Assembly: GCA_965232515.1 (NCBI GenBank) | Contig: CBDDPY010000002.1 | Coordinates: 2,400,001-2,464,000 of the forward strand | DNA from: Alphaproteobacteria bacterium | GTDB lineage: Bacteria > Pseudomonadota > Alphaproteobacteria > GCA-2731375 | DNA: 64,000 bases | Direction of reading: 5' to 3' | Shown: in pieces, positions 26,086 to 46,922 of the stretch | Numbering within the stretch: position 1 is the first letter of the stretch | Layout: each line of letters starts with the position of its first letter | Program-made: the position numbers and the translations under genes | The notes under the pieces: generated by a model | What the model saw: only the letters and a program-made list of their open reading frames with translations | Database searches by the model: none | What the model was told of the DNA's origin: nothing

Positions 26086-28011
26086 TTAGGCGCGCCGCGG
26101 CGCCTCCACCTTATCGTCAGCGCGGCCGAGCGCCGCGAGCGCCGTCTCGACGATATCGGCCGCCGTCAGGCCCGCCTCCGCGTACATGATATCCGGCTTG
26201 TCGTGATCGATGAACCGGTCGGGCAGGATCATCGGCCGGATCTTCAGGCCGTTGTCCATCAGACCATTCGACGCCAGATACTGCATGACCTGCGCCGCGA
26301 AGCCGCCGATAGCGCCCTCCTCGATCGTGATCAGGACCTCGTGGTTCTCGGCCAGGTCGCGGATCAGGGCCTCGTCGAGCGGCTTGGCGAAGCGGGCATC
26401 GGCGACCGTGGTCGAGAACCCGCGCGCGCCCAACTCGTCGGCCGCCGTCAGCGAATCCTGCAGGCGCGTGCCGAACGACAGGATGGCCACGGTTGAGCCT
26501 TCGCGCACGACCCGGCCCTTGCCGATCTCCAGCGGCTCCGCCGTCTCCGGCATGTCGACGCCGACACCGTCGCCGCGCGGATAGCGGAAGGCCGACGGCC
26601 GGTCGTCGATCGCCGCCGCCGTCGCCACCATGCGCACCAGTTCAGCTTCGTCAGCGGCCGCCATGACGACGAAGCCCGGCAGCGAGGCGAGATAGGTAAT
26701 GTCGTACGAGCCGGCATGCGTCGGCCCGTCGGCGCCGACCAGCCCGGCCCGGTCGATGGCGAAGCGCACCGGCAGCGACTGAATGGCGACGTCGTGCACG
26801 ACCTGGTCGTAGGCTCGCTGCAGGAACGTCGAGTAGATCGCCGCGAACGGCTTGTAGCCGCCGGCGGCCAGACCGGCCGCGAAGGTAACGCCGTGCTGCT
26901 CGGCGATGCCGACATCGAAGCAACGCTCCGGGAACCGTTCGGCGAACAGATTGAGGCCGGTGCCGGACGGCATCGCCGCCGTGATCGCGACGATCTTGTC
27001 GTCCGCTTCGGCCTGCTTGATCAGCGCGTTCGCGAACACTTTGGTGTAGGCCGGCGCGTTCGATTTCGGCTTCGCCTGCGCGCCGGTAATCACATCGAAC
27101 CGGCTGACGCCGTGATACTTGTCCGCCGATTCCTCGGCCGGCGCGTAGCCCTTGCCCTTCTGCGTGACCACGTGCACCAGGAGCGGCGCGGTCCGGCGCG
27201 CGTCGCGCACATTCCGCAGCACCGGTAACAGGTGGTCCAGGTTGTGTCCGTCGATCGGGCCGACATAGTAAAAGCCGAGCTCCTCGAAGAGCGTGCCGCC
27301 GGTAATGATGCCGCGCGCGTATTCCTCGGCGCGCCGGGCCGTCTCTTCGATCCGCGGCGGGAACATTTGCGCCAGCTGCTTGGCGATATGGCGAAAGCCG
27401 CGATAGGGCTTCGACGACAGCAAGCGCGACAAGTAGGCGCTCATGGCGCCAACCGGCGGCGCGATCGACATGTCGTTGTCGTTCAAGATCACGATCAGCC
27501 GCGAGTCCATCGAGCCGGCATTGTTCATGGCCTCATAGGCCATGCCGGCGCTCATGGCGCCGTCGCCGATCACGGCGATCACGTTGCTGTCCCCGCCGTC
27601 CAGATCGCGGGCAACCGCAAATCCAAGAGCGGACGAGATCGAGGTCGAGCTGTGCGCCGCGCCGAAGGGATCGTATTCGCTCTCGCTGCGCTTGGTGAAT
27701 CCCGACAAGCCGCCGCCCTGGCGCAGGGTACGGATCCGGTCCCGCCGTCCCGTCAGAATCTTGTGCGGATAGGCCTGATGACCGACGTCCCAGATCAGCG
27801 TGTCCTGCGGCGTGTCGAAGACATGATGCAGGGCGACGGTCAGCTCGACCACGCCCAGCCCGGCGCCAAGATGGCCGCCCGTACTCGATACGGCGTCAAT
27901 GGTCGCGGTTCGCAGCTCGTCGGCAAGTTGCCGAAGTTGCGGATCTGAAAAGGATCGGATATCGGCGGGCGCCGACACCGTATCCAATAGTGGCGTCTTA
28001 CGCGTGCTCAA
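26086..28011 (-). CDS. dxs: 1-deoxy-D-xylulose-5-phosphate synthase
   Basis: [43 protein letters not shown]; TTG start. Confidence 0.98.
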
Positions 28012-28056
28012 TAAACGTTACCGGACTGGCCGGTATCCCTAAATCCAGACGTGCGG

Positions 28057-28947
28057 CTAAGCGCGGCGATTTATAACGAATTCGGCGAGCGCGCGCAAAG
28101 AATCGGCCCGCGGCCCGAACAATTCCAGATGGGTGACGGCCTGCCCGGCCAGCATCTCGGCCCGCTCGACCGCGGCCTCCTCGCCCAGCAGGCTGACGAA
28201 GGTCGCCTTGCCGGCGGCCGCGTCCTTGTTCACGCCCTTGCCGACCGCCTCCGCCGTGCCGGTCACGTCGAGCAGGTCGTCGGCGATCTGGAACGCCAGA
28301 CCGAGGTCATGGGCATAGGCGCGCAGCGCATGCCGTTCGGCGTCGCGCGCCTGGCTCATGACGGCGCCGGTTTCCACCGCGAAGGCGATCATCTCGCCAG
28401 TCTTCAGCCGCTGCATGCGCACGATGGCGGGCTCGGTCAGCTTCTGATGCTCGCCCAGCAGGTCCAGCATCTGGCCGCCGACCATGCCGTGCCCGCCGGT
28501 CGCCCGGGCCAGGCCCAGCACCAGCTCGGCCCGGATCCTGGCGTTGCGCGACACGGCCTCGTCCGCCAGCACCTCGAAGGCGAGTGACTGCAGCGCGTCG
28601 CCGGCCAACACGGCCGTCGCCTCGTCGAAGGCGACATGCACCGTTGGCTGCCCGCGCCGCAGGTCGTCGTCGTCCATGCAGGGCAGGTCGTCGTGGATCA
28701 GGCTGTAGGTGTGCATCAGTTCGACCGCCGCACCGACCCGAACCGCCGAGCGCTGCGGAATATCGAACATCTCGGCCGACGCCAGCACCATGAACGGCCG
28801 CAGCCGCTTGCCGCCGCCCAACGCCGCGTGGCGCATGGCCGCAAACAACTGGCCCTCGGGCCCCTCATCGGCCTTCGGCAGAACCTGCTCGAGAACGGTT
28901 TCGACCGCCTTCGCGGCGACGCCCAGCGTGGTTTCGAAATCGGCCAA
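28057..28947 (-). CDS. ispA: Farnesyl diphosphate synthase (geranyltranstransferase)
   Basis: GGKRLRP, HDDLPCMDDDDLRRG, KTG, FQIADDLLD; between xseB and dxs. Confidence 0.93.
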   Translation of the reverse strand: MADFETTLGVAAKAVETVLEQVLPKADEGPEGQLFAAMRHAALGGGKRLRPFMVLASAEMFDIPQRSAVRVGAAVELMHTYSLIHDDLPCMDDDDLRRGQPTVHVAFDEATAVLAGDALQSLAFEVLADEAVSRNARIRAELVLGLARATGGHGMVGGQMLDLLGEHQKLTEPAIVRMQRLKTGEMIAFAVETGAVMSQARDAERHALRAYAHDLGLAFQIADDLLDVTGTAEAVGKGVNKDAAAGKATFVSLLGEEAAVERAEMLAGQAVTHLELFGPRADSLRALAEFVINRRA

Positions 28948-28956
28948 CGACGCGCC

Positions 28957-29229
28957 TCAGTCGGACTCCAGGGGCTCGACCCCGGCGGCATCGCCGCTCG
29001 GCCCGACGACGATCCGATCGACCTTCTCCTGCGCGGCCGCCAGCTTGGCCTGGCAATGGCTCTTCAACTGCGCGCCACGGGTATACATCTCGATCGAGTC
29101 TTCCAGACCGACCTGCCCGCTTTCCAGCTTGCGCACGATCTCTTCCAGGCCGGCCATCGCTTCCTCGAAGCTCATCGCGCGGATGTCGTCGGGCAGCTTG
29201 TCGCTGTCTTTGGTCTTGGAATCGGCCAA
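28957..29229 (-). CDS. xseB: Exodeoxyribonuclease VII small subunit
   Basis: SFEEAMAGLEEIVRKLESG..LEDSIEMYTRG..C. Confidence 0.95.
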   Translation of the reverse strand: MADSKTKDSDKLPDDIRAMSFEEAMAGLEEIVRKLESGQVGLEDSIEMYTRGAQLKSHCQAKLAAAQEKVDRIVVGPSGDAAGVEPLESD

Positions 29230-29264
29230 ATGCCCTCTCCAGATTCAGGACCGCCGCGTCGTCG

Positions 29265-30191
29265 CTAGGCGGTCATCAGCTCGCGTACATGGGCGGCCGT
29301 GGCCGTCGCCAGGGCCTGCAGGTTATAGCCGCCTTCCAGGGTCGAGACCAGCCTGCCGCCGGCGTGCCGGTCCGCCAGCGCGATCAGCTCGCGCGTGACC
29401 CAGGCATAGTCGTCGTCCTGCATCTCCAGGTTGGCCAACGGGTCGCTGGCATGCGCGTCGAACCCGGCCGAAATCAGCACCAGTTCCGGCGCGAAATCCT
29501 CCAACGCCGGCAGCAGCGTGTCGGCGAAGGCGTCGCGGAAGGCGGTCGAGCCGGCATAGGGCGGCAAGGGCACGTTCACGATATTGCCCAGGCCGCGCTC
29601 GTGCGCGCCGCCGGTGCCGGGATAAAGCGGCGACTGATGCGTCGACACGTAGACCAGGTCGGCGTCGGCCTCGAACATCGCCTGCGTGCCGTTGCCGTGG
29701 TGAACATCGAAATCGATCACGGCGATCCGTTGCAGGCCATGCACGGCGCGAGCCTGCAAGGCCGCGACCGCGACGTTGTTGAAAATGCAGAAGCCCATGG
29801 CCCGGCCCGGCTCGGCATGGTGGCCGGGCGGCCGGACAGCGCAGAAGGCGTTGCGCGCGGCGCCCGAGACGACCTCGTCGACCGCGGCGCAGACGGCGCC
29901 GGCGGCCCGGTAAGCCGCTTCCAGCGAACCCGGAGACATCACGGTATCGGCGTCGAGATGAACGATGCCGTCGCCGGGCGCGGTCTGCTCGACCTTTTCG
30001 ATATAGGCCGCCGGGTGCACCCGCATGACCTGCTCTGGCGTCGCTTTCGGCGCCTCGGCCCGATGCAGGTCCTGGAAGGCCTCGGTCTCCAGCGCATGCA
30101 GAACCGCGCGCAGGCGATCGGCGCATTCGGGGTGCCCCAGTCCGGTGTCATGCGCCAGAAAGGCCGGGTGGGTGAAGAGAACAGTCGTCAT
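29265..30191 (-). CDS. Histone deacetylase family protein
   Basis: GHPECADRL, RPPGHHA, GFCIFNN, DFDVHHGNGTQ, SAGFDAH, LEGGY; start MTTVLF at 30191. Confidence 0.92.
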   Translation of the reverse strand: MTTVLFTHPAFLAHDTGLGHPECADRLRAVLHALETEAFQDLHRAEAPKATPEQVMRVHPAAYIEKVEQTAPGDGIVHLDADTVMSPGSLEAAYRAAGAVCAAVDEVVSGAARNAFCAVRPPGHHAEPGRAMGFCIFNNVAVAALQARAVHGLQRIAVIDFDVHHGNGTQAMFEADADLVYVSTHQSPLYPGTGGAHERGLGNIVNVPLPPYAGSTAFRDAFADTLLPALEDFAPELVLISAGFDAHASDPLANLEMQDDDYAWVTRELIALADRHAGGRLVSTLEGGYNLQALATATAAHVRELMTA

Positions 30192-30226
30192 GCCGCCATC
30201 GTAACCGCCGCTGCGGCGGCCGGCTA

Positions 30227-30538
30227 TCAGGTTCGTGTGCTGTCGACGGTGTCGGTGTCTTCCGGCTCGCTCTCGGGCGGCGGGTCCGCCGGCGCGCGCT
30301 TGCGGCGGATGATGATATCGCCGTTCTCCAGAACCTCCGGCGACTCGTATTGCGGGATGCGGTTGATGAACAATTGCAACGTGTCCATCAGGGTCTTGGC
30401 GGTTTCTCGCGCCAGTTCCTCCGCCTCGCGCGCGAGTTCCTCGGGCGTCTTGCCCTGCTTGTCGTCCTGCGCCAGCGTCGCCGATGGCGCCGCCGCGGTG
30501 AAACAAAGTGCCAGAATGGCGGCTTGTAACCTTTTCAT
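30227..30538 (-). CDS. Small secreted hypothetical protein
   Basis: Signal peptide MKRLQAAILALCF..TLA; EELAREAEELARE repeat; YESPEVLENGDIIIRR; start uncertain (30538-30556). Confidence 0.7.
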   Translation of the reverse strand: MKRLQAAILALCFTAAAPSATLAQDDKQGKTPEELAREAEELARETAKTLMDTLQLFINRIPQYESPEVLENGDIIIRRKRAPADPPPESEPEDTDTVDSTRT

Positions 30539-30656
30539 GATCTGCATCCTTAGCACGGACCGCCCATCGGAGTCGCTGCTGGCGTCATAGGTCCGTGACG
30601 CCTAGACTCGCGGGCGCCCGCCGACACTCATCCCGAATTTTGTCGAAAATAAGAAC

Positions 30657-31559
30657 ATGCCGTCGAAATCGCCCGCCTGGGCCTATCTGCTGCTGACGAT
30701 CGCGGTGCTGATGTGGTCGGGCAATTTCATCCTCGGCCGCGCGGTCCACGCCGAGATCCCGCCGATCGGTCTCGCCTTCTGGCGCTGGGTTGTCGCGGCC
30801 GCGCTGCTCGCGCCATTCGCGGTGCCGGCGGCCTTTCGCCAACGCGCGGCGTTGCGGGCGCATTGGCGCCTGCTGCTGGTCCTGGCGCTGTTCGGCGTCG
30901 CCGCCTTCAACACACTCGTCTATGTCGGTCTGCAAACCACGACCGCGGTGAACGGTGCGCTCGTCAACGCGACCATGCCGGCGCTGATCGTCATCACCGG
31001 CCTGCTGCTGTTCCGCGACGCCGTCAGCTTGGCGCAGACCATCGGTATCGCGCTCTCCTTTTGCGGCGTCGCCGCGATCATCTTTCGCGCCGATATCACG
31101 CTCGTGCAGGCGCTGCAATTCACCGCCGGCGACCTCATCGTGCTCGCCGCCACCGCCTGTTATGCGGTCTATGTCGTGCTGTGGGCCCGCCGGCCGCCCA
31201 CGCTCGACCCTTACGGCACGCTGCTCGTGCTGTTCCTCTTGGGCGCCGCGATCCTGGCGCCGTTCTACGCCTGGGAGTCGCTGGTCGCGGGCCGCACTGT
31301 GCCGCTCACCTGGACCGCGGCCGGCGCGGTGTTCTACGTGGCGGCCGGCGCGTCGGTGCTGGCCTGGATCTGCTACAACCGCGGCATCGAGCTGGTCGGC
31401 CCCGGTCAGGCCGGCATGTTCATCAACCTCAACCCCGTCTTCGCCAGCATCCTCGCCGTGATCCTGCTCGGCGAGCCGTTCCGCCTCTATCACGCCGCGG
31501 GCATGGCGCTCGTCTTCGCCGGGATCTGGCTGGCAACCCGCGCCGGCAGAGAACGCTAA
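30657..31559 (+). CDS. DMT (EamA) family transporter
   Basis: About 10 TM helices; WSGNF..GR, FWRW, NL.PVF..LLGE. Confidence 0.9.
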   Translation: MPSKSPAWAYLLLTIAVLMWSGNFILGRAVHAEIPPIGLAFWRWVVAAALLAPFAVPAAFRQRAALRAHWRLLLVLALFGVAAFNTLVYVGLQTTTAVNGALVNATMPALIVITGLLLFRDAVSLAQTIGIALSFCGVAAIIFRADITLVQALQFTAGDLIVLAATACYAVYVVLWARRPPTLDPYGTLLVLFLLGAAILAPFYAWESLVAGRTVPLTWTAAGAVFYVAAGASVLAWICYNRGIELVGPGQAGMFINLNPVFASILAVILLGEPFRLYHAAGMALVFAGIWLATRAGRER

Positions 31560-31566
31560 CCCGCGC

Positions 31567-32346
31567 TCAGAAGGCGCTGTTGTACTTGCCGCCGTCGATC
31601 AGCAGGCTCTGGCCGGTGATGTAGCCGCTGCCGGCCGCGCACAGGAAGGCGCAGGCCTCGCCGAACTCGGCCGGATCGCCGAAGCGCTTGGCCGGAATGC
31701 CCGCTGCGGTGTCTTCCGCGACCTCGTTCTCCGAACGGCTCTGCAGCTTCGCCGTGCCGGCGAAGCCCGCCCGCAAACGGTCGGTGTCGAAATAACCCGG
31801 CAGCAGGTTGTTGATCGTCACGTTACGGTCGGCGACGGAGCGCGCGACGCCGGCCAGGAACGCCGTCAGGCCGGCGCGGCCGCCGCTCGACAGATCCAGC
31901 CCAACCACCGGCATCTTCACCGAGATCGAGGTGATGTTGACGATGCGCCCGAAGCGGCGCGCGATCATGCCGTCGATCACCGATTGGATCAGTTCGATCG
32001 GCGTCACCATGTTCATGGTCACGCCGTCCAGCATGGCCTTGCGGTCGATCTCGCGGAAGTCGCGGAACGGCGGGCCGCCGTTGTTATTGACCAAAATATC
32101 CGGCGCCGGACAGGCCTCGAGCAGCCGCGCCTGGCCCTCCGGCGTGCCGACGTCGGCGGCGACCGCCGTCACCTCGGCGCCGGTGGCGCGCACGATCTCG
32201 TCGGCCGTGGCCGCCAGCACGGTCTCGTCTCGGCCGTTGATGGTGACGGCCGCCCCGGCCCGGCCGAGCGACATGGCGCAGGCCTTGCCCAGTCCCCGGC
32301 TCGAGGCGCAGACGATCGCCTTCTTTCCGCTGATCCCCAGATCCAT
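31567..32346 (-). CDS. SDR oxidoreductase, atypical
   Basis: CASSRGLG, NNNGGPP; LSSGGR in place of YxxxK; ITGQSLLIDGG. Confidence 0.88.
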   Translation of the reverse strand: MDLGISGKKAIVCASSRGLGKACAMSLGRAGAAVTINGRDETVLAATADEIVRATGAEVTAVAADVGTPEGQARLLEACPAPDILVNNNGGPPFRDFREIDRKAMLDGVTMNMVTPIELIQSVIDGMIARRFGRIVNITSISVKMPVVGLDLSSGGRAGLTAFLAGVARSVADRNVTINNLLPGYFDTDRLRAGFAGTAKLQSRSENEVAEDTAAGIPAKRFGDPAEFGEACAFLCAAGSGYITGQSLLIDGGKYNSAF

Positions 32347-32403
32347 CGGTGTTCTCCCAAAGTGCCGCCCCCGGGCTAGCCTACCGTAAATCGGTGATTG
32401 CGT

Positions 32404-32841
32404 TTAGCTCTCGTCTGTGCGCGCGATCAGCGTGCGCAGGATACGCTTCAACGTCGCCGCCTCATCCCCGTCATAGCCGGCCAGCACACCCGTCTCATGC
32501 CGCTTGGCCTGCGGCAACAGCTTGCGCACCAGCGCCTCGCCGCGACCGGCGATGGCGACGACGACCTTGCGGCCATCCTGTCCGTGCGGTTGGCGCCGGA
32601 CCAGGTCCTCGCGCGCCATGCGATCAATCAGCTTGGTCAGCGTCGGCTGCTGGATCAGGGTGATCTCGGCCAGGTCGCCGATCGTGCGCGGGCCGTCGTT
32701 CAGTGTCGCCAGCACCCGCCATTGCGGCACCGGCACGCCCTGCGCCTTGATCACCTGGTGGAACTGCCGGCTGGCCTGATGGCTGGCGCGCGCCAACAGA
32801 TAGAGCAGATAGTCGTCGATGAAGGCCTTGCCGGCTGCCAT
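32404..32841 (-). CDS. MarR family transcriptional regulator
   Basis: YLLYLLARAS, QWRVLATL, QPTLTKLIDRM, DGRKV; divergent from the dioxygenase operon. Confidence 0.92.
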   Translation of the reverse strand: MAAGKAFIDDYLLYLLARASHQASRQFHQVIKAQGVPVPQWRVLATLNDGPRTIGDLAEITLIQQPTLTKLIDRMAREDLVRRQPHGQDGRKVVVAIAGRGEALVRKLLPQAKRHETGVLAGYDGDEAATLKRILRTLIARTDES

Positions 32842-32860
32842 GCTGAATCATAGCGGAAAT

Positions 32861-32880
32861 TTATATGACTTTTCATATAA
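32861..32880. promoter_or_regulatory. Putative MarR operator
   Basis: Perfect AT-rich palindrome TTATATGA-cttt-TCATATAA in the 89-bp divergent intergenic region. Confidence 0.75.
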
Positions 32881-32930
32881 TTTTTTGAATGCTAGGCTCT
32901 TCCATCGACCGGTAATGGGGACCGACGACC

Positions 32931-33977
32931 ATGCTGCAGGAACGCATCGAGGCGAAGTGGATCGACTGCTTCGCGGCCGTGTTCGAGAAGTGCGCGGTGC
33001 AGGAGGGCGAGATCGTCGCCATCCTCTCCGAAACCCAGTCCCGGCCGGTGAACGTCAATCTGGCCGAGCTCGCCCTGCAGCGTCTCGGCGCCAAGCCGTT
33101 CCACGTCGTGCTGCCGACGCCGCCGCAATCTGTGCCGGTGCCGATCCGCTCGACCGGGGCCAGCGATGTGATCCAGGGAGTCGCGCCCGTGATCTCGGCG
33201 CTGGGCGGCGCCGGCTTCGTCGTCGACTGCACGGTCGAGGGCCTGCTACACGCGCCCGAGCTGCCGGCGATCCTGAAGGCCGGCGCCCGGGTGCTGATGA
33301 TCTCGAACGAGCACCCCGAAGCGCTCGAACGCCTGGCCCCGACGGAAGACCTGGAGGCCAAGACCAAAACCGGCATTAAGATGCTGCGCGACGCCGGCGC
33401 GATGACCGTCAGCTCGCCCGGCGGCACCGAATTGCGGATCGATCTCGACGGCGCTGTCGCCGGTGGCGGCTGGGGCTATACCAAACGCGGCGGCACGATC
33501 ACCCACTGGCCGGGCGGTCTGTGCCTTTGCTTTCCAAAGGCCGGCTCGGTCAACGGCAAGCTGGTGCTCGACCGCGGCGACGTGAACCTGACCTTCAAGC
33601 GCTATGTCGAGAGCCCGATCACGCTGTCGATCGAAAACGACTATGTCACCGACATCGCCGGCGACGGCGTCGACGCCGACCTCATGCGCAGCTATTTCGC
33701 CGCCTGGGGCGACGACGAAGCCTATGCCGTCAGCCATGTCGGCTGGGGCATGAATCCGGGCGCGCGCTGGGACGCCATGACCATGTACGACCGCAACGAC
33801 TTCAACGGCACGGAGCTGCGCGCGTTCGCCGGCAATTTCCTCTATTCGACCGGCGCCAACGAGGTCGCCGGCCGCCACACGTTGGGCCACTTCGACCTGC
33901 CGCTCAGGCGCTGCACGGTGACGCTCGACAACACCGTCGTGGTCGACAACGGCGTGCTGCAGGGAGAACTGGCGTGA
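32931..33977 (+). CDS. 2,5-dihydroxypyridine 5,6-dioxygenase (NicX)-like / peptidase M29 family protein
   Basis: THWPGG, SHVGWGMNPGARWD, RAFAGNFLYSTGAN, HFDLP (His/His/Asp metal ligands as in NicX). Confidence 0.75.
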   Translation: MLQERIEAKWIDCFAAVFEKCAVQEGEIVAILSETQSRPVNVNLAELALQRLGAKPFHVVLPTPPQSVPVPIRSTGASDVIQGVAPVISALGGAGFVVDCTVEGLLHAPELPAILKAGARVLMISNEHPEALERLAPTEDLEAKTKTGIKMLRDAGAMTVSSPGGTELRIDLDGAVAGGGWGYTKRGGTITHWPGGLCLCFPKAGSVNGKLVLDRGDVNLTFKRYVESPITLSIENDYVTDIAGDGVDADLMRSYFAAWGDDEAYAVSHVGWGMNPGARWDAMTMYDRNDFNGTELRAFAGNFLYSTGANEVAGRHTLGHFDLPLRRCTVTLDNTVVVDNGVLQGELA

Positions 33978-34744
33978 TCCCCGCCTATAAGGACGCCGGC
34001 AACGGACAAGCGCTCGTCTTCCTGCACGGCATCGGCGGTAACAAGGAGAGCTTCGACGACCAGCTCGACGCCTTCGCCGACCGCTGGCAGGCGATTTCCT
34101 GGGACATGCCGGGCTACGGCGGCTCGGCCCTACCGCCTGAGCTGACCTGGCCGGTGCTGGCCGACGCGCTCGCGGCCCTACTCGATCACTTGAATCACCA
34201 GAAAGCCGTCATTGTCGGTCATTCCATGGGCGGCATGGTGGCGCAGGAGTTCGTTACCAGGTATCCCGATCGGACCTCGGCCCTGGTGCTTTCCGGCACC
34301 AGCCCCGCGTTTGGCAAGCCCGGCGGTGACTGGCAGCAGAAGTTCCTCGATGCCCGCCTGGCGCCAGTCGAGCGCGGCCTCACGCCGGCCGACATCGCCG
34401 ATGAGCTGGTCGCCGGCATGTTCGGCGATGATCCCGATCCCGCCGCCATGCGCCGCGCCGCCGCCTGCATGGCCGAGGTAGGACCCGAGACCTACCGTGC
34501 CGCTCTGCAGTGCCTCGTCACCTTCGACCGCCGCGACGCGCTCGGTCAGATCAGCTGCCCGACCCTGGTGCTGGCCGGCGAGAAGGACGGCAACGCGCCG
34601 GCGGCGATGATGGAGAAGATGGCCGCGAAGATCCCGGGCGCCCGCTATCACTGCATGCCGGGACTGGGCCACTTGGCCAATTTCGAGCGCCCCGACGTGT
34701 TCAATGCGGCGATCGCCGACTTTCTTTCTGATCTGGAGGCCTGA
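33974..34744 (+). CDS. Alpha/beta hydrolase
   Basis: GTGA overlap; FLHGIGG, DMPGYG, GHSMGG, GEKD, GHLANFE. Confidence 0.9.
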   Translation: MIPAYKDAGNGQALVFLHGIGGNKESFDDQLDAFADRWQAISWDMPGYGGSALPPELTWPVLADALAALLDHLNHQKAVIVGHSMGGMVAQEFVTRYPDRTSALVLSGTSPAFGKPGGDWQQKFLDARLAPVERGLTPADIADELVAGMFGDDPDPAAMRRAAACMAEVGPETYRAALQCLVTFDRRDALGQISCPTLVLAGEKDGNAPAAMMEKMAAKIPGARYHCMPGLGHLANFERPDVFNAAIADFLSDLEA

Positions 34745-34745
34745 G

Positions 34746-35963
34746 ATGGACCTGCCGATGACCGACCGTCAGCGCGAGCTCGTGGGCATCGCCCGCGAGT
34801 TGGGCCGCGACAAGTTCGCAGCCCGGGCGGCGAGATACGACGACGAGGCGAGCTTCCCGTTCGAGAACTACGACGATTTGCGCGCGGCCGGCTTTCTCGG
34901 CCTGACCGTGCCCAGCCAGTATGGCGGGCTCGGCGCCGATTACACCGATTACATGCTGGTCGGGGCCGAGATCGGCCGCTGGTGCGGCGCCACCGCGCTG
35001 ACCTTCAACATGCATACCTGCACCATGCTCTGGTCCAGCCAGATGGCCGACGATCTGCAGATGACCGACGAGCAGCGCGAACGCCACGAAAGCCGTCGCG
35101 CCGGCATCTACCGCAAGGTCGTCGAGGACGGCGCGCTCTTCGCGCAGCCCTTCTCCGAGCCGAACAGCGCCGCGGCCGCCGGCAAGGCGCCCTTCGGCAC
35201 CACGGCGCGCAAGACCGACGGCGGCTGGCTGGTGAACGGCCGCAAGCACTTCGCCTCGCTCTCGGGCGCGGCCGACTACTACGGCGTGCTCTGCACCGAG
35301 GATCGCGAGGACGCGCCCGCCAACGTCAAGGACACGCTCTACCTCGCCGTGCCGGGAAACGCCGACGGCTTCCAGATCACCGGCACCTGGGACCCGGTCG
35401 GCATGCGCGGCACGGTTTCGCGCAACCTCGAGCTCGACGACGTCTTCGTGCCGGATGACCACCAGCTGATGCCGCGCGGCCTCTACTATCAGGCCGCGCT
35501 CTCCTGGCCACATATGTTCATGACCCTGTCGCCGACCTACATGGGCATCGCCCAGGCCGCCTTCGATTTCACCGTCGGCTATCTGCGCGGCGAGCTGCCG
35601 GGCGTGCCGAAGTCGAAGGCGCGCGCCGTGCCGACCAAGCAGTACGCCGTCGCCGAGATGCGCATCAAGCTGGAGCAGGCGAAAGCACTCTGGCACCGCG
35701 CGATCAGCGAGGCCGGCGTCAACCCGACCAAGGATTCGCGGCTGCGCGCCTATACGGCGCAATACACGGTGATGGAATACGCCAACGACATCTGTCGCCT
35801 GGCGATCCGCACCTGCGGCGGCCGCTCGATTATGAAGGCCCTGCCGTTGGAGCGGCTTTACCGCGACAGTCGCTGCGGCTCGCTGATGTTGCCCTGGACG
35901 GCCGAGATCTGCATGGAGCGCCTCGGCCGCGAGAGCCTCTACGAGCCGGGCGAGACCGACTAG
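34746..35963 (+). CDS. Acyl-CoA dehydrogenase-fold flavoprotein (possible monooxygenase)
   Basis: FSEP, NGRKHFAS, WDPVGMRGT, LERLYRD; IYEG motif replaced by SLMLPW. Confidence 0.85.
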   Translation: MDLPMTDRQRELVGIARELGRDKFAARAARYDDEASFPFENYDDLRAAGFLGLTVPSQYGGLGADYTDYMLVGAEIGRWCGATALTFNMHTCTMLWSSQMADDLQMTDEQRERHESRRAGIYRKVVEDGALFAQPFSEPNSAAAAGKAPFGTTARKTDGGWLVNGRKHFASLSGAADYYGVLCTEDREDAPANVKDTLYLAVPGNADGFQITGTWDPVGMRGTVSRNLELDDVFVPDDHQLMPRGLYYQAALSWPHMFMTLSPTYMGIAQAAFDFTVGYLRGELPGVPKSKARAVPTKQYAVAEMRIKLEQAKALWHRAISEAGVNPTKDSRLRAYTAQYTVMEYANDICRLAIRTCGGRSIMKALPLERLYRDSRCGSLMLPWTAEICMERLGRESLYEPGETD

Positions 35964-35967
35964 ACGG

Positions 35968-37479
35968 ATGGACATCTCCGGCTGGATTTCGCGGCGCGCC
36001 GACTGGAGCCCGGCCAAGGTCGCCGTCCGCTTCGAGGGCCGCGAGATCACCTATCCCGAGCTCGACGCCGAAATACGCCGCCTGGCGGCCATGCTCGACG
36101 GCGCGCTTGGCGTCAAGTCCGGCGACCGGGTGGCGCATCTCGGCCTCAATGGGCCGGATCTGCTGACCCTGCTGTTCGCCTGCGCCCGCCTTGGCGCCGT
36201 CCTGGTGCCGCTGAACTGGCGTCTGGCGCCGCCCGAGCATCTCTACATCCTGCAGAACTGCACGCCGAAGGCGCTGCTGGTGGAGCCCGAGTTCATCGCC
36301 GCGACGAACGGCATCCGCGACGGCCTCGGCGGCACGCGGCTCGTCGCCTACGGCCCGCCGCAGGACGACTGGGAGAGCTACGACGCGCTGCTGGCTGCCG
36401 CCGGCGACGACGCCAGCCATCCGCGCGCCGGGCTCGAGAGCGCCGTGATGCTGGTCTACACCTCCGGCACCACCGGCCGGCCGAAAGGCGCCGTCCTGAC
36501 GCAAAACGCCCTGTTCTACAACGCCGTCAACGCCATCTCGGCCCAGGACATCACCAGTTCAGACCACGTGCTGACCGTCCTGCCCATGTTCCATGTCGGC
36601 GGCATGAACATCCAGACCACGCCCGTGCTGCATGCCGGCGGGACGGTGACGATCCATCGCCGCTTTGATCCCGGCGCGACGCTGGCGGCCATCAACGACG
36701 ACCGCCCGACATTGTTCCTGAGCGTGCCCGCCCTGATCCAGGCACTGATCACCCACCCCGCCTGGGCAACGACGGATCTCACCAGCCTGCGCCTGGTCGG
36801 CACCGGCTCGTCGACGGTGCCCGAGGCGCTGATCCGCGCCTGGCTCGATCGCGACATTCCCGTAACCCAGGTCTATGGCCTGACCGAGAGCGGGCCCGTC
36901 GCGATCTGCCTGCCCGAGGCGGACTCCATCGCCAGGATCGGCTCCTGCGGCAAGCCCGCCATGCATTGCGACGCCCGCATCGCCGACGACGCGGGCAACG
37001 ACATGCCCGCGGGCGAAACCGGCGAGATCCTGCTGCGCGGCCCCAACCTGCTCAGCCACTACTGGAACGATCCCGCCGCCACTGAGGCCGCCTTCAGCGA
37101 CGGCTGGTTCCATACCGGCGACGTCGGCCACCGGGACGCCGACGGCTACTACTATGTCGACGACCGCAAGAAGGACGTGGTGATCTCGGGCGGCGAGAAC
37201 ATCTATCCGGCCGAGCTGGAGAACGTGCTCGCCGACTGCGCCGACATCGCCGAGTTCGCCGTGGTCGGCCGCGCGGACGAGAAATGGGGCGAGGTCGCCG
37301 TCGCCTGTATCGTGCCGCGCGACGGCAGCACGCTCACATCAGACGACGTGAAGGCGCTCTTCCACGACCGCCTCGCCCGCTACAAGCACCCCCGCGACGT
37401 CGTCTTCATGACCGAACTGCCCCGCAACGTCATGGGCAAGGTCCTCAAATACGAACTCCGCCGACAACTCGCCAAATAG
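35968..37479 (+). CDS. AMP-dependent acyl/aryl-CoA ligase
   Basis: YTSGTTGRPKG, YGLTE, TGD, ISGGENIYPAE, MGKV. Confidence 0.92.
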   Translation: MDISGWISRRADWSPAKVAVRFEGREITYPELDAEIRRLAAMLDGALGVKSGDRVAHLGLNGPDLLTLLFACARLGAVLVPLNWRLAPPEHLYILQNCTPKALLVEPEFIAATNGIRDGLGGTRLVAYGPPQDDWESYDALLAAAGDDASHPRAGLESAVMLVYTSGTTGRPKGAVLTQNALFYNAVNAISAQDITSSDHVLTVLPMFHVGGMNIQTTPVLHAGGTVTIHRRFDPGATLAAINDDRPTLFLSVPALIQALITHPAWATTDLTSLRLVGTGSSTVPEALIRAWLDRDIPVTQVYGLTESGPVAICLPEADSIARIGSCGKPAMHCDARIADDAGNDMPAGETGEILLRGPNLLSHYWNDPAATEAAFSDGWFHTGDVGHRDADGYYYVDDRKKDVVISGGENIYPAELENVLADCADIAEFAVVGRADEKWGEVAVACIVPRDGSTLTSDDVKALFHDRLARYKHPRDVVFMTELPRNVMGKVLKYELRRQLAK

Positions 37480-37552
37480 GATAGACGAGTTCTTTATCCG
37501 GGCTACAAGATGGCTCTTCTTTGAGTCTTTGCGTCGGTAAAAGATCGCACGG

Positions 37553-38128
37553 TCATGCACTTCCTTCTTGGACCTTGCGCACGATGTCATGAACGCGACG
37601 CACATCACCGATCCGCTCAAATATGAAGGGATGAGGAGGTCCGATCCAAAAGCCAAACCCCCACGCATAGTCGAAGAGATTGTATCCCCTTCCAAATCGA
37701 ATTGATCCAATCGTCCCGCCGGACAGCTCAGTTTGAAGACTTTCTGTAAGCGGCATCGACTTGACTGATCGTCGGAAGAGTCCTTTTGAAATCAGAGCAC
37801 GTTTGTTGGTAACTGCGTATTCGGTCCGTGATCTAATGGCGGCATCGAGCAATGGCCGACCAAATATTCCAATCACTCCGACTAATATGAAAAGCCCACC
37901 AATTCCCACAAACATTATTGCCGGCGGTCTAAACAACTCACCTATGTCGCCATCTGAACTGGCTAGAAAACTTGATACGACCGTCCATTCCCAAAATATT
38001 GCGACGCCTGTCCAAAAGATCAAAAACAGCGTCACCACGACGTCGAATGGCCGAACTATCAGGCCCTTTGGCGGAGACCCTTGCCACAGGATTTTTTCGT
38101 CCTTATCGGTGAAGCTGTTGACTGGCAC
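37553..38128 (-). CDS. Hypothetical membrane protein (two TM helices + bacterial PH-like domain), AT-rich
   Basis: EKILWQGSP, two hydrophobic helices, TEYAVTNKRALI, GSIRFG; codon usage differs visibly from neighbours. Confidence 0.7.
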   Translation of the reverse strand: MPVNSFTDKDEKILWQGSPPKGLIVRPFDVVVTLFLIFWTGVAIFWEWTVVSSFLASSDGDIGELFRPPAIMFVGIGGLFILVGVIGIFGRPLLDAAIRSRTEYAVTNKRALISKGLFRRSVKSMPLTESLQTELSGGTIGSIRFGRGYNLFDYAWGFGFWIGPPHPFIFERIGDVRRVHDIVRKVQEGSA

Positions 38129-40212: not shown

Positions 40213-41907
40213 TCACTCCGCGGCACCCTTCGCCGCCTCGTATTTCTCCATTTCCTCGGCCACCAGCTCCTTCTTCGACAGCTTGCCGATCATGGTCTTC
40301 GGCAATTCGTCGCGGAATTCGATGTGCTTCGGCATCTCGTGCTTGCCGAGCTTGCTCTTCAGGAATTCCTTCAGCTTCTCCTCGTCGATCTCCTGGGCGT
40401 CCTTCAGCTTGACGAAGGCCTTGACCGCCTGGCCGGTATAGTCGTCGGGGATGCCGATCACCGTCACCTCGTCGACGGCCGGATGCTCGTAGATCGATTC
40501 CTCGACATGGCGCGGAAAGACGTTGAAGCCACCGACCAGGACCAGGTCCTTCATGCGGTCGATGATGAAGGTATAGCCGTCGTCGTCCATATAGCCGACG
40601 TCGCCCGTGCGCAGCCGGCCGTCGAGCAGCACCTGCGCCGTCTCCTCCTCGCGGCCCCAATAGCCCTTCATCACCTGCGGGCCCTGAATGCAGATCTCGC
40701 CGGATTCGCCCAGCGGCATCTCCTTATGCGGATCGTCCCGGTCATAGATGCTGATGACGGTGCGCGGCGACGGCTGGCCGATCGAGCCCGGCTTGTTAAC
40801 GCCGTTCAGCGGGTTCGAGCTGGCGACCGGCGAGGTTTCGGTCAGGCCGTAGCCTTCGAACACCTTGGCGCCGGTCATCTGCTCGAAGCGCTGCTTGACC
40901 TCGACCGGCAGCGGCGCGCCGCCCGACATGCAGGAATGGATCGACGACATATCGGTCGTGGTCGCCGCCGGATGGCTGGCCATCGCCGTGTACATGGTCG
41001 GCACGCCCGGCATCATCGTCGGCTTCTTCTGCGGGATCGCCTTCATCACGTCTTCCAGCACGAAGCGCGGATGCATGATGATCTCGCCGCCAATGTGCAG
41101 GGTGTAGTTCATCACCACGGTCATGGCGAAGACGTGGAAGAACGGCAGTACGCCCATCATCTTCTCTTCGCCCGGCCGCGCGCCGGGGAACCAGAGCGCC
41201 GCCTGATGGATGTTCGCCGACAGATTGCCGTGCGTCAGCATGGCACCCTTGGACACGCCGGTCGTGCCGCCGGTGTACTGCAGGACGGCGATGTCCTCGT
41301 CGACGTCGATCTCGACGGGCGCGATATCGCCCTCGTTGTTCATCAGCTCCTGGAACGAGACATGCTTGGCGTCGTTCGGCACCTTGGCGATCTCGCCGCG
41401 CTTGAAGATCGGAAACAGCAGGTTCTTGGGGAACGGCAGCACCTCCGACAGCGTGCCGACGACCAGTTTCTGCAGCCGGCTCTCGCGCAGCATGAGCTCC
41501 ATCTTCGGGTAGAGCGCCTTCAGGTGCAGCGTCACCATGATGTCGGTGTGGCTGTCCTCGATCTGGTGCAATAGCTGCTCTTCCGAATAGAGCGGGCTGA
41601 AATTGACCACCGTGCCGCCGGCCTTCAGCACGCCGTAGTAAGCCACGATGAACTGCGGGCAGTTCGGCAGGAACAGGCCGACCTTGACGCCCTTGGTGAC
41701 GCCCAGATCCTGGAAGCCCTTGGCGGCGCGGTCGATCATCCGGCCGATCTGCTGATAGGTGAATTTCTTGTCCAGGAAGTCGACGCACGGACGGTCGCCG
41801 AACTTGGCCACGGATTGGTCCATCAGTGCCGGCATCGGCCGCTTTTCGATCTCAGCGTGCCAGTCCACGCCCGGCGCATAGTTTTTCAGCCAGGGATAAT
41901 CGGCCAT
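40213..41907 (-). CDS. Long-chain fatty acid/dicarboxylate-CoA ligase (FadD/PimA-like)
   Basis: YPWLKNYAPGV, QYTGGTTGVSKG, EGYGLTETSP, TGD, GGFNVFP, IGKL. Confidence 0.92.
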   Translation of the reverse strand: MADYPWLKNYAPGVDWHAEIEKRPMPALMDQSVAKFGDRPCVDFLDKKFTYQQIGRMIDRAAKGFQDLGVTKGVKVGLFLPNCPQFIVAYYGVLKAGGTVVNFSPLYSEEQLLHQIEDSHTDIMVTLHLKALYPKMELMLRESRLQKLVVGTLSEVLPFPKNLLFPIFKRGEIAKVPNDAKHVSFQELMNNEGDIAPVEIDVDEDIAVLQYTGGTTGVSKGAMLTHGNLSANIHQAALWFPGARPGEEKMMGVLPFFHVFAMTVVMNYTLHIGGEIIMHPRFVLEDVMKAIPQKKPTMMPGVPTMYTAMASHPAATTTDMSSIHSCMSGGAPLPVEVKQRFEQMTGAKVFEGYGLTETSPVASSNPLNGVNKPGSIGQPSPRTVISIYDRDDPHKEMPLGESGEICIQGPQVMKGYWGREEETAQVLLDGRLRTGDVGYMDDDGYTFIIDRMKDLVLVGGFNVFPRHVEESIYEHPAVDEVTVIGIPDDYTGQAVKAFVKLKDAQEIDEEKLKEFLKSKLGKHEMPKHIEFRDELPKTMIGKLSKKELVAEEMEKYEAAKGAAE

Positions 41908-42067
41908 ATCGCTTGTCTCCCTTTACGCGGCATCCGCGCAAATGCCCCATGGATTCGCTTGAACTCGATATAGCACTGATTTCGTTAATGACACACAGAT
42001 GACAGCAATCCGATCGCGATTGCCGCGTGTATCGATCAGCGTGGACCGCCGGATCTTGTCACCGTCT

Positions 42068-42155
42068 TCTGGATGCCCGGATCAAGTCCGGGCATGACGA
42101 ACGGGGCGAGCCTTCGCCAATTTCGTGTTTGCCGGGCTCGACCCGGCAATCCAGA
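42068..42155. repeat. REP-like doublet: two inverted 34-nt units, each a hairpin
   Basis: Unit 1 tctggat-gcccgga-tcaag-tccgggc-atgacgaa (42068-42101); unit 2 reverse complement tctggat-tgccggg-tcgag-cccggca-aacacgaa (42122-42155). Confidence 0.8.
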
Positions 42156-42178
42156 CGCAACCTCCGGAACGCGTCGTC

Positions 42179-43003
<825 letters not shown>

Positions 43004-43007
43004 CGAA

Positions 43008-43805
43008 CTAGCGTCCCTTGAACTCGGGCTTACGCTTCTCGGCAAAGGCCGAGATGCCCTCGCGGAAATCCTCCGTCTCCACGTTCGAGGCGAAACACTC
43101 GGCCTCGAGCTGCAGCTGCGCCTCGTACTCGCGGTCGATCGAGCCGTGGATCAGCTTCTTGACGTTGCCGAGCGCGTGCGTCGGCCCGTTCGCGAGGCGG
43201 TTGGCGAGCTTGGCCGTCTCGGCCTCGAGCTGGTCGCGCGGCACCACGAAATTGACCATGCCGTGCTGCGCCGCCGTGGCGGCGTCCACATCGTCGCCCA
43301 GCATGGCGAACTCCATCGCCTTCTTGACGCCGACGATGCGCGGCAGGAAGTAGGTGCCGGTGCCGTCCGGGCTGGTGCCGATGCGCACATAGGCCATGGC
43401 GAAAATGGCGTCGTCGGAACAGATCACCAGGTCGCAGCCCAGCGCCAGGCTCATGCCGAAACCGGCGGCATAGCCCTGCACCGATGCGATCACCGGTTTC
43501 GGCATGCGGCGGAACGAGAACATGATTGGGTGCATCGCGTTGATGCCTTCCAGAAACCGCCGCCGCTTCTGGTGCGGGCTGTTGTCGCGGTCGGCGTAGA
43601 AGCCCTTGACGTCACCGCCGGCCATGAAGTGCTCGCCGGCGCCCTTCACCACGACACAGCGGATCTCGGGATCGAACTCGACCTGCGTGTTGATCTCCAA
43701 CAGCGCTTCCTTCATGTCGGCGTTCAACGCGTTCAGCGCCTTCGGCCGGTTCAGCGTGATCGTGGCAACGCCCCCGGCGACGTCCAGTACGGCGGTATCG
43801 TTCAT
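43008..43805 (-). CDS. Enoyl-CoA hydratase/isomerase family protein
   Basis: TLNRPKALNAL, FMAGGD, PKPVIASVQGYAAGFG, DFREGISAF.EKR.P. Confidence 0.92.
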   Translation of the reverse strand: MNDTAVLDVAGGVATITLNRPKALNALNADMKEALLEINTQVEFDPEIRCVVVKGAGEHFMAGGDVKGFYADRDNSPHQKRRRFLEGINAMHPIMFSFRRMPKPVIASVQGYAAGFGMSLALGCDLVICSDDAIFAMAYVRIGTSPDGTGTYFLPRIVGVKKAMEFAMLGDDVDAATAAQHGMVNFVVPRDQLEAETAKLANRLANGPTHALGNVKKLIHGSIDREYEAQLQLEAECFASNVETEDFREGISAFAEKRKPEFKGR

Positions 43806-43836
43806 TGACGGCTTCCCCTTCTTGAATTCGTAGCGA

Positions 43837-44889
43837 TCAGGCGGCGTCGGCGGCTTCTTGCGTCCGCCGGTAGACGTAAACACCGTCGGCGTCGAGGCTG
43901 CGCACGACCCGGCCGCGACCGATCAGGCAATGCAGGTGCGCCAGCGATTCACCGACGCCCAGAAAGGCTTCGAATGGCTTCAGCCGGCGCCGGAACAGCA
44001 CCTTCAGCGTCGACAGCACCCGCGTTGGCTCGCTCAATGCCGCTTCCAGGGCGGCCAAGCGCTCGTCGTGGTGTGACTGCAGATAATCGAGCCGCGCCGG
44101 CAGCCCGTGGAACGGCTCGTTGTGCGCCGGCAGCACCAGCGTGTCGGCCGGCAGGTGCCGGTAATGCGCCAGGCTGTCGAGATATTCTTCCAGCGGATTG
44201 GCGTCCGGCTCCGACGGATAGACGCCGATATGCGGCGTGATCTTCGGCAGCACCTGATCGCCCGAGATCATCACCTGCAACTCGTCGCAGTAAAGACAGG
44301 CATGTTCCGGCGCGTGGCCATAGCCGACGATCACCCGCCAAGCCCGGCCGCCGATCTCGATCACCTCGGCATCGACGATGCGCCGGTGCGCGCCCGGAAT
44401 CTCCCAGACCGAGTTGCGGTAGTGGTTGTAGCCTCTGGCCCGCAGTTTCTCGACCGCGTCCGGCTTGAAGCCCAGCCGCCGGAAATGATCGAGATAGTAT
44501 TCCGGCGCCACGTCGGCGGCGTCGAGATAGAGCATGCGGCCGAACAGCCATTCGCGCCGCGTCGCCCAGAGCGGCGCCTGCCAGCGTTCGCACAGCCAGC
44601 CGGCAAGGCCCATATGGTCGGGGTGGAAATGCGTGCAGATGACCCGTTTGACCGGACGGCCGCCCAGATACCGGTCCAACACCTGCGCCCACAGGCCGCG
44701 GATCTTGTCCGTGTTCATGCCGGTATCGACGATGGTCCAGCCGTCGCCGTCGTCCAGCAGCCAGAGATTGATGTGGCTGAGCCCGGTCAGCTCAAGCGGC
44801 ATGCGCAGCCAGAGCACGCCCGGCGCGACCTCGATGGTTTCGGCCGGCTCAGGCACGCGGTCGAAGGGATAACGCAGTTGATCAGCCAA
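43837..44889 (-). CDS. MBL-fold metallo-hydrolase
   Basis: THFHPDHMG, GHAPEH, SGDQVLP, LPAH; TTG start. Confidence 0.9.
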   Translation of the reverse strand: MADQLRYPFDRVPEPAETIEVAPGVLWLRMPLELTGLSHINLWLLDDGDGWTIVDTGMNTDKIRGLWAQVLDRYLGGRPVKRVICTHFHPDHMGLAGWLCERWQAPLWATRREWLFGRMLYLDAADVAPEYYLDHFRRLGFKPDAVEKLRARGYNHYRNSVWEIPGAHRRIVDAEVIEIGGRAWRVIVGYGHAPEHACLYCDELQVMISGDQVLPKITPHIGVYPSEPDANPLEEYLDSLAHYRHLPADTLVLPAHNEPFHGLPARLDYLQSHHDERLAALEAALSEPTRVLSTLKVLFRRRLKPFEAFLGVGESLAHLHCLIGRGRVVRSLDADGVYVYRRTQEAADAA

Positions 44890-44979
44890 TGACTCGGGCC
44901 TCGCTTGTCGCGGAATACGAAATTGCCGCGCAAGCGCACAGGGCTCCGGCGGCTTTCGACAGGAGTATAGACGTTCTAC

Positions 44980-45001
44980 TTGACGTTTACGTCAACGTCA
45001 A
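44980..45001. promoter_or_regulatory. LiuR-type (MerR family) operator
   Basis: TTGACGT-TT-ACGTCAA (44980-44995) with overlapping TTTACGT-CA-ACGTCAA, upstream of acyl-CoA metabolism genes. Confidence 0.7.
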
Positions 45002-45012
45002 CCTTGTGATCC

Positions 45013-46809: not shown

Positions 46810-46922
46810 CGGCCAACCTCCCTCCAGGTCGCGGGCACGCCTCGCTGCGCCGCGGCTCTTAACTCTTGCAGGTAATATGCTATGCAGGACAAGTGGTGCA
46901 AACCCGGAACGAGGCAATGCCG

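Follow-up and report, generated by a model that had tools for sequence, protein, structure and literature searches.

A recurrent MarR-linked operon around a distinct clade of NicX-type dioxygenases probably encodes a ring-cleavage route other than that of known nicotinate catabolism

In Pseudomonas putida KT2440, the nicotinate cluster brings together NicX, NicD, NicF, NicE, NicC and NicAB under the control of the MarR-type regulator NicR. To our knowledge, no other ring-cleavage dioxygenase of the NicX class has a solved structure. In the degradation of the steroid rings A and B, the HsaAB-HsaC-HsaD-FadD3 system combines an oxygenase of the acyl-CoA dehydrogenase (ACAD) fold and its flavin reductase with a dioxygenase, an alpha/beta hydrolase and a CoA ligase that takes up the released acid. 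A third described route leads from salicylyl-CoA through gentisyl-CoA to gentisate; its salicylyl-CoA hydroxylase is not of the ACAD fold and its dioxygenase is a cupin. The present work concerns a locus of an Alphaproteobacteria bacterium (GTDB lineage GCA-2731375; assembly GCA_965232515.1, contig CBDDPY010000002.1) in which a NicX-family dioxygenase is encoded together with an alpha/beta hydrolase, an ACAD-fold protein and a CoA ligase, next to a divergent marR gene. The window, that is the whole stretch of DNA that was analysed, covers 64,000 nucleotides (positions 2,400,001 to 2,464,000 of the contig), and all coordinates given below refer to it. This locus probably encodes ring cleavage of the NicX type by a dioxygenase from a clade of its own, with new and constant partner enzymes and by a route unlike that of known nicotinate catabolism.

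The locus is composed of the following features, in which NicXl, ABH, ACADl and Lig designate the products of the four genes of the operon.

31567-32346, minus strand: oxidoreductase of the short-chain dehydrogenase/reductase (SDR) family (Pfam adh_short and adh_short_C2), in the same direction as marR and peripheral to the conserved module
32404-32841, minus strand: MarR-family regulator (Pfam MarR_2, 5.1e-15), divergent from the operon
32861-32880, no strand: perfect inverted repeat TTATATGA-N4-TCATATAA, probable MarR operator (direct reading)
32931-33977, plus strand: NicX-family dioxygenase NicXl, 348 residues, Fe(II) ring-cleavage type (homology to PDB 7cn3)
33974-34744, plus strand: alpha/beta-fold serine hydrolase ABH, GTG start (Pfam Abhydrolase_1, 8.2e-33)
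34746-35963, plus strand: ACAD-fold flavoprotein ACADl, without the catalytic Glu (four ACAD Pfam domains)
35968-37479, plus strand: acyl-CoA ligase Lig of the ANL family (Pfam AMP-binding, 1.9e-86, and C-terminal domain)
37500-37516, plus strand: terminator-like hairpin, 21 nt past the ligase stop (consensus scan only; weak, 7 such sites against 4.2 expected)

The four-gene MarR-linked operon is real, and its order recurs in dozens of unrelated genomes, beyond what can be expected by chance. Direct reading shows that the NicXl stop codon and the hydrolase GTG share four nucleotides (GTGA, 33974-33977) and that a single nucleotide (34745) lies between the hydrolase and ACADl genes; the ends of the open reading frames (ORFs) leave four nucleotides (35964-35967) between ACADl and the ligase. 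An earlier note on this DNA, made from the sequence alone, had listed the six genes with these overlaps and gaps and the perfect palindrome, and all of them were read again as claimed. The same note had described a self-contained unit, which is indeed the case since the flanking genes (dxs, ispA, an EamA transporter and a LysR regulator) are housekeeping or unrelated ones. RNA-seq contigs from two libraries of close relatives (X4 and X18; 90-97% identical) fill 28 and 27 of 30 bins, and one contig of 1375 nt (33725-35099) crosses the junctions between NicXl, ABH and ACADl, which is a hint only. Because DNA carry-over is possible and contigs cannot prove a single transcript, these data are not counted as proof of expression.

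The product of the first gene is a homolog of NicX. Its sequence matches the solved P. putida enzyme (PDB 7cn3) with an E value of 1.4e-62 over residues 12-341 and 38-40% identity, and its structural model (predicted local distance difference test, pLDDT, 93) superposes on NicX with a Z score of 46.7 and a root-mean-square deviation of 1.8 A over 341 residues. The M29 aminopeptidases AmpT, AmpS and PepS have this fold in common with NicX and reach Z scores of 20-22 with 13-15% identity; some sources name relatives of NicXl 'peptidase M29', and the ligase subfamily takes its name from long-chain fatty acids. On these grounds it could be imagined that no ring is cleaved at all, NicXl being a peptidase-like or other hydrolytic enzyme in a cluster devoted to lipid, amino-acid or secondary metabolism. 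Such an explanation is highly improbable, as the Peptidase_M29 profile (PF02073) does not match NicXl even at an E value of 10 and finds nothing over the whole genome at 0.01, and as the match to NicX is far stronger and the Fe ligands are all invariant. Sequence, fold and the negative Pfam result thus all speak for the earlier assignment of the protein as NicX-like rather than as an M29 aminopeptidase. The local copies of Pfam and NCBIfam contain no family for NicXl; the precomputed label PF26233 is present among its database matches. This genome encodes a single NicX homolog.

The accessible part of the structural study of NicX (PMC7910607) gives His265, Ser302, His318 and Asp320 as the Fe ligands and describes 2,5-dihydroxypyridine (2,5-DHP) as positioned by Leu104, His105, Glu177 and His189, of which Glu177 is turned towards the nitrogen of the ring and the oxygen at C2; this part of the source reports no substrate other than 2,5-DHP. 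The SHVGWG and HFD motifs pointed out in the earlier note are present in NicXl and align with His265 and with His318/Asp320, respectively. When 89 sequences of the clade are aligned with 14 canonical ones, both groups show the four Fe ligands and Arg293 without exception and an almost invariant His189; Leu104 and His105 are also kept in NicXl. The position of Glu177 behaves otherwise. It is occupied by Glu in 13 of the 14 canonical sequences and never in the 89 members of the clade, where Gly (42), Val (37), Asn (3) or Thr (3) are found; the window protein has Gly there, within a stretch that reads G-G-G. The clade appears to keep the catalytic machinery and to lose a specificity determinant. 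Since Glu177 is replaced across the whole clade, the ring that is opened is probably that of a substituted or different analogue instead of plain 2,5-DHP, and it need not be an N-heterocycle.

The same division is apparent at the level of the whole family. Among 401 genomes sampled evenly from the phylum, 21 contain a NicX homolog, and the identities of these homologs are bimodal, with nine genomes at 53-100%, twelve genomes (13 loci) at 34-40% and nothing between. A quick maximum-likelihood tree was computed with IQ-TREE from 103 sequences, consisting of the 89 high-identity clade rows and the canonical rows and leaving out the characterised 2,5-DHP dioxygenases Hpo, VppE, PicD, HpaX and HpdF. 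The branch between the clade and the canonical sequences has a length of 1.61 and an SH-aLRT support of 99, so that the placement of NicXl in a distinct clade beside canonical NicX is, at this level of analysis, well supported. The clade is large: NicXl has at least 8000 database matches, and the best 120 of these, 74-97% identical, span Alpha-, Beta- and Gammaproteobacteria, Rokubacteria, Binatia and Acidimicrobiia. Among the carriers of related loci are Alpha-, Beta- and Gammaproteobacteria, Rokubacteria/Methylomirabilota, Binatia, Myxococcota and Acidimicrobiia. The Acidimicrobiia are nested among the Alphaproteobacteria in the tree, which suggests a transfer between phyla.

Synteny was analysed by tblastn and clustering of all ORFs in 81 loci, i.e. 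the window and 80 related loci, several of which are cut by contig ends; neighbor counts were made on a wider clade set of 88 loci and on a canonical set of 13 loci. The order NicXl-ABH-ACADl-Lig recurs, ACADl being present in 64, ABH in 60 and the ligase in 50 of the 81 loci. In an unbiased sample, the other clade loci contain ACADl in 6/8, ABH in 7/8 and the ligase in 4/8 cases, and none of the 13 canonical loci has ACADl, ABH or the ligase. The latter carry a NicC-like flavin adenine dinucleotide (FAD) monooxygenase, a NicD-like hydrolase, a NicF-like isochorismatase, a NicE-like isomerase of the Asp/Glu-racemase type and a NicAB-like molybdenum hydroxylase. Homologs of nicF, nicE, nicC, nicD and nicA were detected by tblastn in 10-12 of the 13 canonical loci, against 0-3 matches, all weak (24-55% identity), for the same five genes in the 88 clade loci. 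The window likewise contains no nicC, nicE or nicF, as had been noted before, and the rest of the genome only weak or distant homologs of NicC, NicE and NicF, with no close NicC or NicE; a NicF-like isochorismatase, 44% identical, is encoded 4.3 Mb away. Together with the absence of ACADl and ligase from canonical loci, these counts bear out the earlier claim that the locus differs from the canonical nic cluster. The idea that the whole gene set is conserved holds for the four-gene module, found in dozens of genomes, and has to be given up for the SDR gene, which adjoins the module only in the nearest relative (locus L002).

The locus thus resembles the nic cluster of P. putida KT2440 by a NicX-family enzyme with the same fold, the four Fe ligands and Leu104, His105, His189 and Arg293, by the alpha/beta hydrolase alongside and by the divergent MarR-type regulator, and it differs from it by the separate clade, the loss of Glu177, a hydrolase that is not a NicD ortholog, and the presence of ACADl and a CoA ligase instead of nicC, nicE, nicF and nicAB, none of which is nearby. 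According to the version that is closest to the earlier note, NicXl and the hydrolase would act on 2,5-DHP as NicX and NicD do, the ligase and ACADl would replace NicF and NicE, and maleamate would be processed as a CoA ester. The retained Fe ligands, Leu104, His105 and His189 are compatible with this version, as are the common superfamily of the hydrolase and NicD, the isochorismatase encoded elsewhere in the genome and the MarR proteins also present in two canonical loci (L088 and L092), canonical control of the NicR type being likewise of the MarR family. It is nevertheless improbable, as it has to accommodate the absence, from all 89 clade members, of the Glu177 that reads the ring N-H and the C2 oxygen according to the accessible part of the NicX study, an identity of only 21-24% between the hydrolase and NicD-like proteins, an ACAD without catalytic base, which is a poor candidate for enoyl-CoA chemistry, and a linkage to flavin reductases that it leaves unexplained.

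This linkage concerns the third gene of the operon. ACADl matches the N, M and C domains of ACADs in Pfam, the C-domain match ending at profile position 133 of 150, and its model (pLDDT 87) aligns with many ACADs at a Z score of about 40. True ACADs carry a catalytic Glu in a Y-E-G-T motif. The alignments of ACADl with these enzymes end at YRDxRxG, the next residues being S-L-M-L-P-W, and a Leu takes the position of the catalytic Glu; the earlier description of a Glu-less ACAD-fold enzyme is confirmed by this alignment, with LMLPW at the Glu site. Among 30 ACADl orthologs, M381 and P383 do not vary, and L382 and W384 hardly do. The best sequence match in the PDB is 5z8t/5gj7 (E value 1.7e-43), deposited under the title 'Flavin-containing monooxygenase'. 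A flavin reductase gene (Flavin_Reduct, PF01613) is found in 21/88 clade loci against 0/13 canonical loci, and on the basis of coordinates 16 of the 21 are located between marR and NicXl or right after ACADl. The window has no flavin reductase nearby, and three PF01613 genes are present elsewhere in the genome. Neighbors of ACADl in the ESM Atlas bear the automatic name 'putative dibenzothiophene monooxygenase', to be taken as a lead and no more. The flavin reductase linkage and the relation to 5z8t favor the reading of ACADl as a two-component oxygenase; the protein is more probably the oxygenase half of such a flavin monooxygenase than a CoA-ester dehydrogenase. It is similar to the monooxygenases DszC, TdsC, SfnB and 5z8t by its ACAD fold (Z scores of 37-40.5), the lack of the catalytic Glu and the association with a reductase in relatives; it departs from this group in that its identity to 5z8t/5gj7 is only 28-30% and its scores are as high or higher with true ACADs.

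The hydrolase has an intact triad (Ser84, Asp205 and His233), and G82, S84, G86, D205 and H233 are kept in at least 95% of 61 orthologs. It is nearest to the PcaD-type enol-lactonases, but its 157.1 bits with TIGR02427 fall below the cut-off of 255.85, and it also matches the Pfam Thioesterase family (1.6e-08). With the NicD-like proteins of two canonical loci (L085 and L088, the label being derived from context) it is 24% and 21% identical, so that, as a correction to the earlier note, it is not to be taken for a NicD ortholog. The ligase scores 500.2 bits with the NCBIfam model PRK06187, above the cut-off of 476, and its best matches in the PDB are 8weu and 8wev (fatty-acyl and feruloyl-CoA synthetase, about 1e-118); the TSGTTGxPKG motif, G384-D385 and K491 are conserved among 52 orthologs. 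Taken as a set, these enzymes recall the Hsa system by the same logic of steps, from hydroxylase to dioxygenase, hydrolase and ligase. The corresponding models are far from being reached, with 80 bits for ACADl with HsaA (cut-off 450), 77 for ABH with HsaD (400) and 333 for the ligase with FadD3 (657). Moreover, the dioxygenase is here of the NicX type, which acts on para-diols, and not an extradiol catechol enzyme, and steroid genes are not nearby.

On the basis of these elements, the locus can be viewed as a catabolic operon, repressed by MarR, through which a hydroxylated aromatic or N-heteroaromatic compound would be hydroxylated, cleaved, hydrolysed and activated with CoA; the probability of this reading, whose order of steps is deduced, is estimated at roughly one half. 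In a first step, ACADl would act as a monooxygenase dependent on reduced flavin and add a hydroxyl group, giving a para-dihydroxy ring that resembles 2,5-DHP, with a flavin reductase that would be supplied from elsewhere in this genome and from beside the cluster in many relatives. The Fe(II) dioxygenase of the NicX clade would then open the ring, the Ser-Asp-His hydrolase would cut the acyl or N-acyl bond formed by this opening, and the ligase would finally turn the released carboxylic acid into a CoA thioester for further metabolism. MarR would sit on the palindrome between the divergent promoters until released by the substrate or an intermediate. From the earlier proposal of a CoA-dependent variant route for an N-heterocycle, the non-canonical route is retained; an N-heterocycle is no longer required and the role of ACADl is reread.

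Several observations weigh against this pathway. The replacement of Glu177 alone is no proof of a different substrate. The highest NCBIfam scores of ACADl are obtained with AcrC (137 bits), FadE16 (132) and desulfinase (124), which are true CoA-dependent ACADs, and lower ones with DszC (86) and HsaA (80), in a range of 92-80 that includes SfnB, all being far below the cut-offs; the fold search also ties true ACADs with monooxygenases, all at Z scores of 37-41. No flavin reductase is nearby in 67/88 related loci and in the window. The ligase is absent from 31/81 loci, some of them cut by contig ends, which makes its place in the pathway uncertain. Finally, 7-9 loci contain TRAP transporters. 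These suggest that the substrate is a carboxylate, as would suit a route that begins with the ligase.

In this other route, the ligase would activate an aromatic or pyridine carboxylic acid, ACADl would hydroxylate or oxidise the thioester, the hydrolase would serve as a thioesterase, and NicXl would cleave the freed dihydroxy acid. The scheme resembles the salicylyl-CoA route to gentisate. TdaE is reportedly an ACAD-like oxygenase that acts on a CoA ester, an example of the existence of ACAD-fold oxygenases of this kind. The locus has in common with the routes of the salicylyl-CoA or TdaE type the combination of a ligase and an oxygenating flavoprotein with a hydrolase or thioesterase and with a dioxygenase that cleaves para-diol rings, although the enzyme families differ from those of the salicylyl-CoA route. 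The position of the ligase directly after ACADl in 50 of the 64 loci with ACADl, the better scores of the latter with CoA-dependent families, the carboxylate-type TRAP transporters and the Thioesterase match of the hydrolase all fit this order of events. The flavin reductase neighbors, however, point to a two-component system working with free flavin, and the NicXl and ACADl core persists without the ligase in many loci, for instance in Minwuia; Pusillimonas and Thauera also lack the orthologous ligase and have a different, longer AMP-binding gene nearby. In addition, the adjacency of hydrolase and dioxygenase is the usual pairing for the processing of a ring-cleavage product. A route that starts with the ligase is consequently kept as a tentative alternative, rather unlikely as it stands.

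A bolder and doubtful proposal can be formulated as to the substrate. The clade without Glu177 could open a substituted ring of the 5-hydroxy-2-pyridone type (e.g. N-methyl, or C6-acyl or alkyl) or a carbocyclic para-diol, the hydrolase could free an acid larger than formate, and this acid or the C4 half of the ring could be converted to the CoA ester, the whole constituting a widespread unrecognised pathway.

In the control region, the palindrome reads TTATATGA-CTTT-TCATATAA; its upstream distance is 20 nt from the start of marR and 51 nt from the NicXl ATG. A minus-strand promoter-like match for marR from a consensus scan (32876-32847) overlaps it. A divergent MarR gene at most 1.2 kb from the NicXl gene occurs in 19/80 related loci. 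The core ATGA-N4-TCAT, usually in the form TATATGA-N4-TCATATA, is present between marR and NicXl in 12 of these 19 loci, in Alpha- and Betaproteobacteria, and in none of the 61 loci without MarR (42 kb of upstream sequence). The 18-nt form TATATGA-N4-TCATATA is found once in the 7.39-Mb genome at up to one mismatch, and its reversed control is not found. The 14-nt core alone is not significant in the window, where 28/100 shuffles give a match, so that the evidence for an operator is its conservation across loci. The palindrome is probably the MarR operator.

The surroundings of the module vary from one locus to another. The SDR protein has Ser...Ser-x3-Arg at the site of the classical catalytic Ser...Tyr-x3-Lys and a glycine-rich motif CASSRGLG, and the gene found at its position in many other loci is a flavin reductase. 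An HDAC-like gene (29265-30506, minus strand) was considered as a part of the module and dropped, as it belongs to a conserved dxs-ispA-xseB-HDAC block (26086-30506, minus strand). In 14 related loci (L003, L007, L012, L014-L021, L023, L029 and L061) the module has this block immediately upstream of it; in the window, the EamA transporter, the SDR gene and marR are inserted between the two. A first-pass ORF at 29289-30590 (plus strand) is probably spurious, the real gene being probably the HDAC-like one on the minus strand. The EamA transporter gene (30657-31559) was also set aside, as it is not beside the module in other loci. Downstream, a 191-residue ORF just past the ligase (37553-38128, minus strand) has no Pfam family and is not conserved beside the module. 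A second, unrelated CoA-dependent cluster (40213-46935, minus strand) encodes an AMP-binding ligase (564 residues), an SDR, an enoyl-CoA hydratase, a protein of the metallo-beta-lactamase fold and a 640-residue ACAD with an Acyl-CoA_dh_C extension.

Some variant loci contain genes for a Rieske oxygenase, a P450 or a TRAP transporter, which suits the catabolism of aromatic acids, and in some loci, such as L096, the ligase is followed by a 3-hydroxyacyl-CoA dehydrogenase, in keeping with CoA chemistry further down the pathway. Members that branch early in the clade (L058, L078, L101 and L102) have other contexts: a P450, a luciferase-like monooxygenase and a Peptidase_C26 protein in L058, Rieske dioxygenase subunits and a second, very divergent NicX paralog in L078, and a glutamine-synthetase-like gene, a TetR gene and a flavin reductase in L101. 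The gamma-glutamyl-type enzymes of these variants hint at an amine-bearing aromatic substrate there. In three Bordetella-like Betaproteobacteria (L038, L040 and L047), NicXl lies beside a gene of the serine beta-lactamase family, a conventional ACAD of another family and an ABC transporter, and the usual hydrolase, ACADl and ligase are absent from these three loci. Thauera sp. 2A1 harbors two identical copies of the module (L076 and L077), one on a contig labelled plasmid p2A1 and one on a second contig of the same assembly, which suggests that the module is mobile. The Thauera module (L076/L077) is followed by a flavin reductase, a LIV-type binding protein, a Zn-dependent dehydrogenase, a 635-residue AMP-binding protein and a glutathione S-transferase.

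The earlier note had singled out this locus as a candidate for an undescribed system. A search of the full-text literature, in which subscription journals are largely uncovered, returned no published description of this gene set and leaves the locus in this position. The locus belongs to a second NicX clade, very large and highly conserved, in which the substrate pocket is altered and the partner enzymes form a constant set of their own. Annotation pipelines label the genes of this clade '2,5-dihydroxypyridine 5,6-dioxygenase' or 'peptidase M29', and these current labels probably give wrong predictions of nicotinate degradation in metagenomes. Once the substrate is identified, aerobic ring cleavage would gain a new pathway, and the MarR protein with its operator would be usable as a sensor. 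If the substrate turns out to be a common natural pyridine, for instance a methylated pyridine osmolyte or a pyridone derived from NAD, the pathway would represent an important sink, missing so far, through which marine and soil bacteria consume N-heterocycles.

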